This document shows, piece by piece, positions 15,066-33,144 of a stretch of DNA of 64,000 nt. Every line of letters begins with the position of its first letter. The stretch's first letter is position 1. The notes below the pieces were generated by a model. It saw only the letters and a program-made list of their open reading frames with translations, was not told the origin of the DNA and did not search any database. The stretch is from the IMG/VR virus record IMGVR_UViG_3300001528_000621, positions 96,001 through 160,000 of that record; one strand, given 5' to 3'. This DNA is from a virus. Lineage: Duplodnaviria; Caudoviricetes. Position numbers and translations under genes: made by a program.

Positions 15066-15416
15066 ATGAGAGAGTTTCCAATACAAAAGTTTTGGTATGG
15101 AAAAGGAGCAGCGTGCAAGGACATAGAAGAACTAATAGAGAAAAACGTTACTTGGTTCGTTTGGGCAGTTGAGAATTTTCAGGATGTAACACCGAAACAA
15201 GCTCAACACTTCAAAGAGGTCTGGAAGATGGACCTACCAAAACAAGTAGTTACTTCCCAAAAACTTTTAGACGAAATTAATGAAGGTCTTCCATATGAAC
15301 ACAAAAAGAAGGATACCGAAGACGTTTATAAGGAGCTTTGCCGTAAATACGCTGACGCTACAGGACAGAAATGGAATGAGTGGTTGTCAGAGGGTTGCGG
15401 AGAAGCAAAAATATAA
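15066..15416 (+). CDS. DUF3820/ExoX-C-terminal-like protein (paralog of 20632)
   Basis: F..GK....IEELI.....F.WAV....V.P.QA..F.E shared with 20632..21099. Confidence 0.55.
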   Translation: MREFPIQKFWYGKGAACKDIEELIEKNVTWFVWAVENFQDVTPKQAQHFKEVWKMDLPKQVVTSQKLLDEINEGLPYEHKKKDTEDVYKELCRKYADATGQKWNEWLSEGCGEAKI

Positions 15417-17282: not shown

Positions 17283-17507
17283 TTTTCTCAAAGCTAAACT
17301 CCTAGATAAGACTAAAAGCGTACATCAAGGAGAGTATAGATTCCCTTAAGGGAGACAAAAAGGAAGATTATTTTAATATAATATATTACTTAGCTCTTTA
17401 ACTTAGGGATACCTAAGGGATTTAATTCACAAAATTTCTTAAGTTTTTCTATTTGAAAATCATAAAAAGCTATTATCTTTAGAGCAGAAATTAAAAACAA
17501 AAGAATT

Positions 17508-19064: not shown

Positions 19065-19329
19065 TATCTAAGTCGTCACTAAAGAGTTACTAGAGGTTGA
19101 GAACTAAAATTTCTCAGCCTTTTTCTATATCTAACTTACAAGGGTAATAGAAGAAGAGTAATAAGAGCTTTATAGGAGAACTTGAGTATCCCTTAAAAGT
19201 AAAAGCTAAGTAATATAATCATATATGAAAGAAAATAACTAAGGAGAATCAAAGTTCTCCTAAAGATAGAATATAAAAGAAAACTAAAATAATTTCTATT
19301 ATGTTCAAAGATTTATACTATCTTTAGGT

Positions 19330-19596
19330 ATGGAAAAAAAGAAGAAGAAAAAGAAAGTAGATGAGGTACCGGTAGAGGTTTTTGAACTTCATCAATTGTG
19401 GGAAATCATATACAGGGAGGATAGGTATAGGACAGGACAATACTTAGCTATTCGTATGGAACATAAAGGGTTTCCTAAAATTGAAAAGGTCTTGGAACAA
19501 ATAAAATTAGCATCGGGACATACGTTCCCTGACTTAGTAAAAATTGAATTGGTTCAAGAGGGTTGGAAAAGTCTCACCAAGGAGAAAGTAGTGTAG
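19330..19596 (+). CDS. hypothetical protein, start uncertain
   Basis: 88-aa ORF after the promoter at 19319. Confidence 0.45.
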   Translation: MEKKKKKKKVDEVPVEVFELHQLWEIIYREDRYRTGQYLAIRMEHKGFPKIEKVLEQIKLASGHTFPDLVKIELVQEGWKSLTKEKVV

Positions 19597-20067
19597 AGAG
19601 GAAGGTATAATAATTCAGAGATGAAAGATAAAAGAAATAATAATAGAAAATATGACAGTATATTCTCAGTCCCCTTTATGTGGGAAAAGTAAATATATTT
19701 AGATGTATTAAAGAGAAAGAAGTAGAACTAGAGTGAAAAGAACTATTAGAAATTACAATAGAAAAAGAATGCAAAGGAAAGAATAATAAGGAGAAATAAA
19801 AGAGATAAGAGGTAAAGTGGAGAAGAAGGAGAAAATAAGGAAATAAGGTGTAAAAGAAGTGTGTATTTAATATAATGGAAGGAGAGGATAGAAAAAGGAA
19901 CCGGGTATTATCTTGAGAATCTATAACTTATCAGGAATTTTTCTTTATAATCCCCGACACCCTCTCAATGAGTTACCCGAATCCTTTTAACGGAATCCTG
20001 CATAAGACAGTTACAAAAAGTTACAGTATCTTTTAGGTTTCCTCAACCTCAGCCTATTTATAGTTGT

Positions 20068-20508
20068 ACTGAGGAGTTCCTCTAAGGTTGAAAAGACATA
20101 TAAGAGAAACTAGGAGAGTAAATAAACCTTACGAATCCAAGAAGTCTCAGGAATAAAGGGAACACGGTTGTCTAGATGGCATTTACGAAACCACCCCGAG
20201 GGGTTAAAAGGAGTAGACGAAATCACTTACATTCAGGAGACATTATTAGATTAAGGGTTAAGTTAAATCCCAGGATTATCTTAGTTGGAAAGAATATAAT
20301 AGAGTTTCAGTTATTGGTTATCCGAGAAAAAGGATATTAACTAACAGGCTCGGCCGTATGGGAGTCCGGAGTTAGACAGCTGAAAACGTTTATGTTTTAG
20401 TTAGTTACAGTTCTACCTCTTAGGTGCAGACTATGTGAAAGTCTCAGACCTAGCTACCGAGGTAGGAATCCCTATGTAATAACCTTTAGTGGGTCTTAAT
20501 CTTTCAGC
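20068..20508 (+). ncRNA. candidate large structured ncRNA (~440 nt)
   Basis: ORF-free; follows a TATTTAT late promoter (20055); 5'/3' closing helix and at least 10 nested helices found by eye. Confidence 0.65.
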
Positions 20509-20631
20509 ATTTATTATTATCTTTAGGTATGGAAAGAAAGAGAGATATAACATTTCCCGGATATCGAGGAAACCCCACTAACAAAGGAAAGGACATACCT
20601 CCTTTCATACTGTCCCCTTACAAAGAGATAG

Positions 20632-21099
20632 ATGTTAGAAAATACAAACCAGTCTCGTAAAGGTCCTTTATCGGTTTTTAAAGCAGGGAAGTATGTAGGC
20701 AATCGCATAGAGGATATCATAAAGAAAGACCCGTACTACTTTATATGGGCTGTAAAGGAGTGGTTAAATGTATCCCCAGAGCAGGCGTCCCTCTTTGAAG
20801 AGGTAACGAATGGAGGAATTATACCAGAAAAGTACATTGTAAGTCCTACTAGAAAAGAGGAACCTTTAGTAGACATTCCTTATTTATCTTGGGGACCAGA
20901 AGGGGTATGTGAGGTAAAGAATCCAGTGTACTATATTCCTAATTACGATTTTGACCCTGACCTGGCTCCTGATTTTTGGAAAGAATTCAAGAAAGCTTTA
21001 ACACCGGAAATGGGTGAAGCTGAGAGAGGAAACCTTTTTAGAAGACTCCAGGACGAATACAACAAGAAATGCTTAGCTCTCTACTTAGATGAAAAGTAA
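20632..21099 (+). CDS. DUF3820/ExoX-C-terminal-like protein
   Basis: FKAGKYVGNRIEDII..DPYY..W. Confidence 0.6.
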   Translation: MLENTNQSRKGPLSVFKAGKYVGNRIEDIIKKDPYYFIWAVKEWLNVSPEQASLFEEVTNGGIIPEKYIVSPTRKEEPLVDIPYLSWGPEGVCEVKNPVYYIPNYDFDPDLAPDFWKEFKKALTPEMGEAERGNLFRRLQDEYNKKCLALYLDEK

Positions 21100-21511
21100 A
21101 GATTACGTTAAGGTTGTTTGGAATAAAAGAAACATATGTCCTTCTCTTACTACGTTTCTAGAAAAAGTTTCTAATAGTAAGATAGAAAAGCTCAGACTAG
21201 AAGCACAGCAAGGAAACGCTTACAGATGGGCCTTAGAAGGTATTAAGGATGTAAGCTGGACGTCCTGGGCTAGTAGAGAAGCTAACACCCTCTTTAAAGC
21301 TCTCAGGTGGCCTCTTTATGAAGCTTTTGGCGATGATCTCATAGCTGTGGCTTCAGAAAACGGTACCCTTAATATCTTACTAAAAGGAGAGGAGTCCCTC
21401 TTCCGTAAAGTAAAAATTAATAAAAAGGTTCAATTAAACCGTATTGTAGGTAAGCCTCCTGTTCCATACTATATCCTTGTTTCTTACCCTAAAGATAAGA
21501 CAAAAGCGTGA
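21089..21511 (+). CDS. hypothetical protein
   Basis: 140 aa; followed by the terminator ACCTGC-TAAAAA-GCAGGT and a U-tract. Confidence 0.6.
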   Translation: MKSKDYVKVVWNKRNICPSLTTFLEKVSNSKIEKLRLEAQQGNAYRWALEGIKDVSWTSWASREANTLFKALRWPLYEAFGDDLIAVASENGTLNILLKGEESLFRKVKINKKVQLNRIVGKPPVPYYILVSYPKDKTKA

Positions 21512-21719
21512 AAGACCTGCTAAAAAGCAGGTTATTTTTTTATGTTTTGGTTTTAAAGACTCACAAAAGACAGCTATCTTTAGGTTAGGAATTAACAGAT
21601 ATAGAAACAGAGAGGAAATAAAAGTCCAAAATTAAAATAGAAAGCCTTTTATCACTCACAAAAACATCTTATCTTTAGCTTAGAAATTAAAAACAAATAA
21701 TAATTAAAACCAAAGAATT

Positions 21720-33121: not shown

Positions 33122-33144
33122 TATTTATTACAAACTGAGTAGTA

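Follow-up and report, generated by a model that had tools for sequence, protein, structure and literature searches.

Positions 19597 to 20528 of the window (the whole stretch of phage DNA that was analysed, 64,000 nucleotides) are without a plausible gene and truly non-coding, and they contain a conserved structured RNA with covarying helices. This compact core, here called Domain 1, is a new RNA family that is absent from Rfam 15 and of a known general kind. The stretch around it is probably an accessory RNA cassette read on the + strand, made up of a promoter-like motif, Domain 1 and lineage-specific tails, and as far as can be judged from the letters its product is most likely a stable or leader RNA of that strand. 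The initial annotation of this DNA had announced an ornate RNA of 440 nt; that headline was overstated, and the core finding survives in smaller form. The features are collected in Table 1.

Table 1. Features of the gene-free stretch and its downstream flank, with positions in the window.
Feature	Position	Strand	Basis
Block B, ...CTGAAAC.TCCAA.TTTT.CTTATAAT-like, intergenic module	19900-19954	+	Conservation in relatives
Module CAATGAGTTACCCGA	19966-19980	+	Conservation in relatives
Degenerate copy TATCTTTTAGG of early-type motif TTATCTTTAGG	20028-20038	+	Motif class
Hairpin CCUCAG/CUGAGG, promoter motif in loop	20047-20074	+	Pairing checked in strains
Promoter-like motif CCTATTTATA, late-gene/tRNA class	20053-20062	+	Motif copies in genome, invariance in strains
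Small 5' hairpin GAGG-AGUU-CCUC, near putative transcript start	20071-20082	+	MFE and centroid folds
Domain 1, structured core	20144-20241	+	Homology, covariation, alifold z
Domain 1, helix P1	20144-20148/20237-20241
Domain 1, helix P2	20151-20154/20231-20234
Domain 1, helix P3	20156-20161/20223-20228
Domain 1, hairpin P4	20169-20172/20178-20181
Domain 1, helix P5	20182-20186/20213-20217
Domain 1, helix P6	20193-20196/20201-20204
Domain 2, clade-specific 3' extension, uncertain fold	20248-20502	+	Three strains
Hairpin UAUCC-loop-GGAUA in Domain 2	20319-20336 (20319-20323/20332-20336)	+	Compensatory series
Proximal early-type promoter motif TTATCTTTAGG of downstream operon	20517-20527	+	27-nt block match
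Small conserved ORF, 43 aa	20529-20660	+	Synonymous changes, homologues
Downstream gene, 155 aa, weak ExoX-like_C match	20632-21099	+	PF20600

Genome setting and the gene-free stretch

The virus record is 187,848 bp long and carries direct terminal repeats; the window is its bases 96001-160000. Its G+C content is ~37% and the + strand carries nearly all genes. Judging from a baseplate-wedge match the phage is a myovirus, and most of its proteins lack a PHROG family. Small genes at ~12-27 kb of the window have the repeated motif CACAAAA-N6-TTATCTTTAGG(T) before them, and structural genes start from ~28 kb. The gene-free stretch had been described as lacking any ORF, and this is correct: between 19560 and 20660 there are 21-28 stop codons per frame on both strands. 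All three kinds of stop are present in every frame, so that no recoding rescues any of them, and an alternative genetic code for the stretch is thereby ruled out.

The cassette region is single-copy in the phage genome, and no + strand intrinsic terminator was predicted from 19123 to 21200, the end of the scanned region. The other long gene-free gaps of the genome are two tRNA clusters, ~41 and ~29 kb distant from the cassette, with seven tRNAs (L013, 73500-75500) and three tRNAs (L014, 86200-87800). In the first of these a ~270-nt stretch with a terminator is found between tandem promoter motifs and the first tRNA. A purine-rich (A+G) tract with strain-specific indels occupies 19600-19900, 3' of gene 19330, and includes a 32-nt imperfect repeat (19785-19816 and 19823-19854). 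Similar purine-rich tracts trail the upstream gene in the relatives L004, L005, L008, L011 and L019.

Domain 1 in three lineages

A blastn search against 50,697 phage records gave no similar known phage, and relatives in IMG/VR were not found with three flanking proteins and a profile. The relatives used here are metagenome contigs, reached by protein searches with the downstream 155-aa gene and an upstream 88-aa gene. Domain 1 is present in three lineages, namely this phage with its sister strains L006 and L007 (~96% identity), L005, and L019, between which the neighbouring protein is 39-50% identical. Window positions 20164-20221 match L005 684-744 with 82% identity over 61 nt (E 1e-10), and the rest of the two spacers is unalignable. 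When the window clade and L005 were folded together, RNAalifold gave a structure with five compensatory pairs. The covariance model made from that fold, R1, scores L005 at 106 bits and detects L019, which was left out of model building, at 2419-2534 with 94 bits (E 4e-19). Using nhmmer and R1 over all relative loci examined and the whole genome, Domain 1 was found beyond the window only in L005, L006, L007 and L019, and exact-pattern scans for its core in viral contigs and prokaryote genome contigs found none.

In the alignment of all five sequences, canonical pairs fill 96% of pair cells (87% in shuffles), both sides have changed in six pairs (0-2 for slid registers), and the covariation score is reached by none of 500 shuffles; these statistics come from three lineages, effectively three independent sequences, and from an alignment (A9) fitted to the model. 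Helix P2 exists in three pairing versions (GAAU/AUUC, ACC/GGU and CCU/AGG), and in P4 a G-C pair becomes A-U and a U-G pair becomes C-G between lineages. The unpaired segments ACGGUU, CGAAAC, UUAAA.GGAG and GACGAA are invariant across the Domain 1 lineages; the internal loops (CGAAAC and UUAAA.GGAG) are among them. An extra C-G to U-A covariation in P3 between L005 and L019, seen by eye, was dropped as dependent on the alignment register. The first hand-drawn fold of this domain was right in GUCUC/GAGAC, GAAU/AUUC and ACCC-CGAG-GGGU. Its helix GUCUA/UAGAC is wrong because L005 would give A.C and C.A there; two local helices take its place, the hairpin P4 (UGUC-UAGAU-GGCA) and P5 (UUUAC/GUAGA).

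The domain has a fixed relation to a promoter-like motif. In both L005 and L019, P1 starts 3 nt after CCTATTTATA, and conservation between these two contigs starts exactly at GCCTATTTATA, with ~50% identity upstream and ~88% downstream. The core of the motif, TATTTAT, is found a single time in each of the early-region fragments of L005 and L019, ahead of Domain 1. The homologous spacers of L002, L008 and L011, which have no Domain 1, do not contain it. Since conservation runs from the motif onwards and TATTTAT is otherwise absent, the promoter motif and Domain 1 travel together.

Promoter-like motifs

Genome-wide there are two classes of promoter-like motif, CACAAAA-N6-TTATCTTTAGG(T) (early) and CTATTTAT(A/T/C) (late). 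Examples of the early type are found at window positions 21577, 22172, 23323, 26418 and 26725, with an ATG directly behind in four cases. When one mismatch is tolerated, CTATTTAT(A/T/C) is seen 6-50 nt ahead of many structural-gene starts, at 33122, 36451, 45199 and 55416 and past the window end. The genome has six copies of CTATTTATA, all six on the + strand and five of them intergenic. A tRNA-Arg begins 24 nt behind a motif of the CTATTTATA / CTATTTAT class, and a tandem of TATCTTTAGG then CCTATTTA heads the region with the seven-tRNA cluster. Past the window end, the CTATTTATA copies at genome positions 160450 and 177628 lie between short inverted repeats (CACATA/TATGTG and ACCTG/CAGGT), much as the copy here lies between CCTCAG and CTGAGG. 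This could be typical of the motif class or could simply reflect chance in AT-rich sequence.

Only the copy at 20053-62 has neither an ORF nor a tRNA behind it for 467 nt. Its ten bases are invariant in the sister strains L006/L007, while variation across the locus peaks in the 25 nt that flank it on each side, the flanks varying by 10-14 per 100 nt. Earlier it had been pointed out that a late-type TATTTAT sits within a hairpin in an otherwise early region. The position is borne out: TATTTAT at 20055-61 lies between CCTCAG (20047-52) and CTGAGG (20069-74). As a motif class the description is reasonable, the motif preceding structural genes and a tRNA, and it is from these genes that we infer late timing for the CCTATTTATA class. 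In L006/L007 the closing pair of the hairpin is lost and two of its pairs are changed to U-G and G-U, which is tolerated only as + strand RNA.

The motif TATCTTTTAGG has one extra T and a spacer of 8 nt vs 6 nt, and its promoter function is doubtful because the copy differs in both sister strains, L006 and L007. At the proximal promoter of the downstream operon, the 27-nt block of the 20517 motif resembles the block before gene 19330 with 93% identity, and TTATCTTTAGG stands at the proximal position before the homologous gene in L002, L004, L005, L008, L011, L016 and L019. The RNA stretch is flanked by two copies of TATCTTT(T)AGGT.

Flanking modules and the downstream operon

The 155-aa gene, which has 99 relatives in a representative library, served as the synteny anchor for comparing the spacers. 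Its match to PF20600 has an E of 4e-4, which is under the curated cut-off. All relatives have in common a long spacer of conserved modules upstream of its homologue, consisting of a purine-rich tract, block B, CAATGAGTTACCCGA, the proximal TTATCTTTAGG, and a small ORF that encodes a GKDIPP motif and overlaps the gene start; in the P0002 contig the gap upstream of the homologue is 616 nt. Block B is common to L002, L004 and L005, and visible too in L008, L011, L016 and L019. The match to CAATGAGTTACCCGA is exact over all 15 nt in L002 and over 13 nt in L004; the module is present in L011, and altered in L008 and L016. The conserved non-coding modules are located at 19900-19985 in the window, and at L002 1119-1312, L004 1480-1776, L005 538-600, L008 1460-1640 and L011 296-490. 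A further module of the relatives, AGAAAAATCAATG...GTGCTGAAAAGTCTGG, occurs as a duplicate in L008; the window lacks it. These conserved upstream modules may be regulator sites.

Downstream, four of the five differences between the 43-aa ORF and L003 are synonymous third positions. Because these differences are mostly synonymous, the non-coding stretch is taken to end at 20528. Homologues of the ORF are found in L002, L005, L008, L011/L012 and L019, and are called as genes in L002, L005 and L011/L012. The ATG at 20529 comes 1 nt after the promoter motif TATCTTTAGGT, so the ORF looks leaderless. The encoded peptide has Gly-X-Y-like repeats and a GKDIPP...SPY motif, and the ORF runs, in a different frame, into the start of gene 20632.

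Upstream of the homologous gene, the cassette is absent from L002, L004, L008-L012 and L015-L017, with the operon and its promoter kept. Relatives without the RNA thus retain operon and promoter, and the RNA is therefore an accessory cassette and not an obligatory cis element of the operon.

The whole stretch and Domain 2

The minimum free energy (MFE) of 20041-20508 is -109 kcal/mol, compared to -111.4 +/- 6.8 in dinucleotide shuffles (z +0.35), and the minus strand gives a z of -0.14. Single-sequence stability is thus at chance level, and the case for a functional RNA therefore has to come from comparative data. The view of the initial annotation that all ~440 nt form one highly structured RNA is not supported, with a z of +0.35, with only Domain 1 conserved across lineages and with no predicted terminator to mark a discrete 3' end. 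The 15 helices that it listed do exist as complementary segments, all 15 consisting of canonical pairs. Taken together, its hand fold reaches -59 kcal/mol vs -98.7 for the MFE fold, with which it has 46 of 82 pairs in common. The small GAGG-AGUU-CCUC hairpin is invariant in L006/L007.

Neither Domain 2 nor the 75-nt leader (20068-20143) is present in L005 and L019, where Domain 1 is followed by unrelated 3' tails of 95-135 nt. Since Domain 2 is absent outside the clade, the evidence for it must come from three near-identical strains, which over 20076-20510 differ by 15 substitutions and one indel. Folded alone, Domain 2 has a z of -0.53 vs shuffles. Its clearest element is the hairpin at 20319-36, in which the pair 20323/20332 is C-G in the window, U-G in L006 and U-A in L007; it has a 1-nt insertion in the loop and is found in both the hand fold and the RNAalifold fold. 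The pair 20276/20468, in the proposed helix GGAUU/AAUCC, reads U-A, C.A and C-G across the three strains and is ambiguous. Here, RNAalifold prefers another fold of Domain 2, in which U20276C turns U-G to C-G with no change of partner needed, and in which an outer helix of 11 bp (20250-60/20480-90) takes up G20255A as G-U to A-U, a substitution that is disruptive in the hand fold.

If the substitutions in the three strains are placed at random, two pairs that vary on both sides turn up with P ~0.004, and two such pairs were never obtained in 433 rotations of the structure; the alifold energy vs re-placed substitutions is not significant in the three strains (p 0.2). The hairpin at 20319-36 is thus supported by its clean series, and some long-range pairing in Domain 2 is plausible. 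Among the other long-range contacts that had been proposed, the closing helix 20087-92/20503-08 shows one compatible and one disruptive change, and the pseudoknot falls, a C-G pair being broken by G20492A in both sister strains. Covariation in homologues, the check that had been put forward for the whole RNA, is present in Domain 1 and slight in Domain 2.

Comparison with known RNAs

With Rfam 15, no family was matched to the stretch when the whole window was searched at the gathering threshold, and at E<=10 the segments 19400-20800 and 20040-20530 gave noise only (snoRNA and miRNA models with scores far below threshold). ARAGORN found neither tRNA nor tmRNA in the window. The stretch had been read by eye as having no signature of tmRNA, RNase P or group I/II intron, and this agrees with the searches; cmscan, which had been suggested as a check, gave no match to these or to ROOL and GOLLD even at E<=10. 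Several individual readings were set aside. For RNase P RNA there is no model match at E<=10, and GGAGUCCGG at 20361-69 resembles CR-I superficially only. A group I or II intron has no Rfam match at that threshold and the flanks are non-coding on both sides, and the known riboswitch classes gave no match to a curated aptamer model in Rfam. Model support is also absent for a hammerhead-like reading of CGAAAC and CUGA.GA, for a sarcin-ricin-like AGUA/GAA motif (G20187A in the sister strains removes the GAA), and for a reading of Domain 2, which is single-copy, as a MITE.

In T4, the small stable RNAs C and D (species 1 and 2), whose function is unknown, are made by the phage-tRNA transcription apparatus; they are encoded inside the tRNA cluster and undergo processing together with the tRNAs. 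By description, the cassette differs in standing alone in an early-type gene region. ROOL and GOLLD are large non-coding RNAs of phages and prophages whose function is unknown and which are linked to tRNA genes, possibly by co-transcription (PMC5737381). Multimeric cages have been reported for them (PMC12286853). As with ROOL (RF03087) and GOLLD (RF01998), which frequently lie next to tRNA genes or in (pro)phages, the cassette belongs to a phage, and its motif type is also that of the tRNA-Arg of the same phage. However, the two covariance models give no match to it even at E 10, its conserved part is ~100 nt vs 580-800 nt, and it does not adjoin the tRNA clusters. ROOL and GOLLD also have many conserved multistem junctions and pseudoknots, unlike the cassette, whose proposed pseudoknot is disrupted in the sister strains. 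Its tie to tRNAs is the shared promoter-motif type only. The roles that the initial annotation had drawn from this analogy (scaffold, virion-packaged or anti-defence RNA) are speculative.

A third comparison is with the phi29 pRNA (RF00044), likewise a phage RNA of ~120 nt with a multi-helix junction and functionally important loops. Here again no Rfam match is obtained, and the pRNA oligomerises via complementary loops, whereas the palindromic P4 loop of Domain 1 (CUAG, and UAUA in the sister strains) is not kept in L019. The pRNA is moreover expressed from an early promoter at one genome end, unlike the cassette. By analogy, the cassette would work most like the orphan stable phage RNAs (GOLLD, ROOL and T4 RNAs C and D), being a member of none of them.

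Proposed mechanism and alternatives

For the cassette, transcription, timing, RNA ends and function are what we infer. The promoter-like CCTATTTATA, of the class found before structural genes and the tRNA gene, would be followed by a folded RNA whose conserved functional core is Domain 1. In this core the stacked P1-P2-P3 stem would open into a junction bearing hairpin P4 and the arm P5-P6, and in the window clade it would have gained a ~75-nt leader and, as Domain 2, a ~255-nt 3' extension. The cassette lies downstream of a conserved regulatory block and ahead of the proximal promoter that serves the next operon. The RNA would be made late in infection and act as RNA, through conserved loops that would bind another RNA, a ligand or a protein, and it would be either a stable species released by processing or the 5' part of a late read-through transcript. 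As no terminator is predicted, it would be cut from longer transcripts, end atypically, or head a late read-through mRNA.

An alternative that we find doubtful and still worth keeping in view is that Domain 1 could be a cis-acting 5' leader, riboswitch-like or a protein-binding operator, placed where a late transcript starts and controlling late expression of the operon of the small ORF and the ExoX-like_C gene. It might do so by governing read-through, or by hiding an otherwise leaderless start codon in a long transcript. The same operon is found downstream in all three lineages and no predicted terminator separates it from Domain 1. A compact junction domain with conserved unpaired nucleotides is also what such leaders have, and with P1 so close to the motif in L005 and L019 the domain would be aptamer-like at the very 5' end of a transcript predicted to run into the operon. 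However, most relatives use the same operon and proximal promoter and dispense with Domain 1, and in the interval from Domain 1 to the operon the window clade has no conserved sequence in common with L005/L019. An expression platform with alternative pairing was not found, and no known riboswitch class is matched in Rfam.

The stretch is unlikely to be a non-functional spacer, that is, a decayed gene cassette between duplicated promoter copies with segments that are complementary by chance. The MFE is no better than that of shuffles, a TATCTTT(T)AGGT copy lies on each side, Domain 2 is without a homologue outside the clade, and gain, loss and reshuffling of cassettes are common in the region. 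Such a spacer would not be expected to keep Domain 1 at 82-88% identity with compensatory changes amid flanking spacers that cannot be aligned, nor a promoter motif that is invariant amid hypervariable flanks, and neither translated similarity nor a codon-like substitution pattern was seen.

A role at the level of DNA in place of RNA, for example as a promoter array, an origin or a site bound by a regulator, is very improbable. It is true that several modules, promoter-like and conserved, lie crowded in this 1-kb gap, and that when one sequence per lineage is used the alifold z of Domain 1 from column shuffling is nearly the same on both strands (-4.4 on +, -4.1 on -). With all five sequences the + strand is clearly better (-4.9 vs -2.7). 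The earlier remark that many G-U pairs work only on the + strand also holds, as many pairs are G-U or change by way of G-U and would be A.C mismatches on the other strand. The helices are also long-range and nested, and not simple palindromes or iterons, and GC skew has no turning point at the cassette region.

Finally, a small basic protein from the 54-aa ORF at 20176-20340 is scarcely credible: its ATG (AUGG.AUU) is kept in all lineages and the frame is recovered after the 2-nt and 1-nt indels that separate the window from L005, but all four changes in the first 8 codons between these two are non-synonymous, L005 and L019 differ by three synonymous and three non-synonymous changes and then an 11-nt indel, C20323T is a premature stop in L006/L007, and the stop position differs in every lineage.

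Beyond the accessory cassette as set out above, it may be suggested, quite tentatively, that Domain 1 is the core of a new phage RNA class with a specific molecular partner, for instance a late-phase aptamer or riboswitch, or a decoy that sequesters a protein or counters a defence system. The promoter and RNA would in that case form a mobile cassette in rare ~190-kb myoviruses of the rumen or gut, and Domain 2 would be a functional extension specific to its clade.

Significance

To our knowledge, few structured phage RNAs are known beyond tRNAs, and most of these (GOLLD, ROOL and the T4 stable RNAs) have no known function. What is added here is a compact, covariation-supported domain with invariant loop nucleotides that is tied to one promoter class and is gained and lost as a cassette. 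This combination makes the system tractable, as a 100-nt core can be probed, pulled down or deleted. The value of the find is limited by its rarity, with three lineages that are all uncultured. The comparison also brings out the transcription layout of this phage group, with two classes of promoter motif and leaderless-looking starts.

Gene order around the cassette

Gene order and content around the RNA cassette differ between strains and relatives, which fits an exchange of cassettes at repeated promoter sequences. The sister strains have an extra cassette of ~645 bp that encodes a 214-aa protein (L006 492-1136 and L007 496-1140), at a place corresponding to window position 17492 and missing from the window. 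In L002 the same gene families as in the region around 17492 are found in a different order. Both of these observations fit cassette shuffling at repeated promoter sequences. It is also worth noting that a 116-aa protein (15066-15416) is paralogous to the N-terminal portion of the 155-aa ExoX-like_C protein, and that the first ORF of L002 resembles the 116-aa and 155-aa proteins, with 71% and 39% identity.
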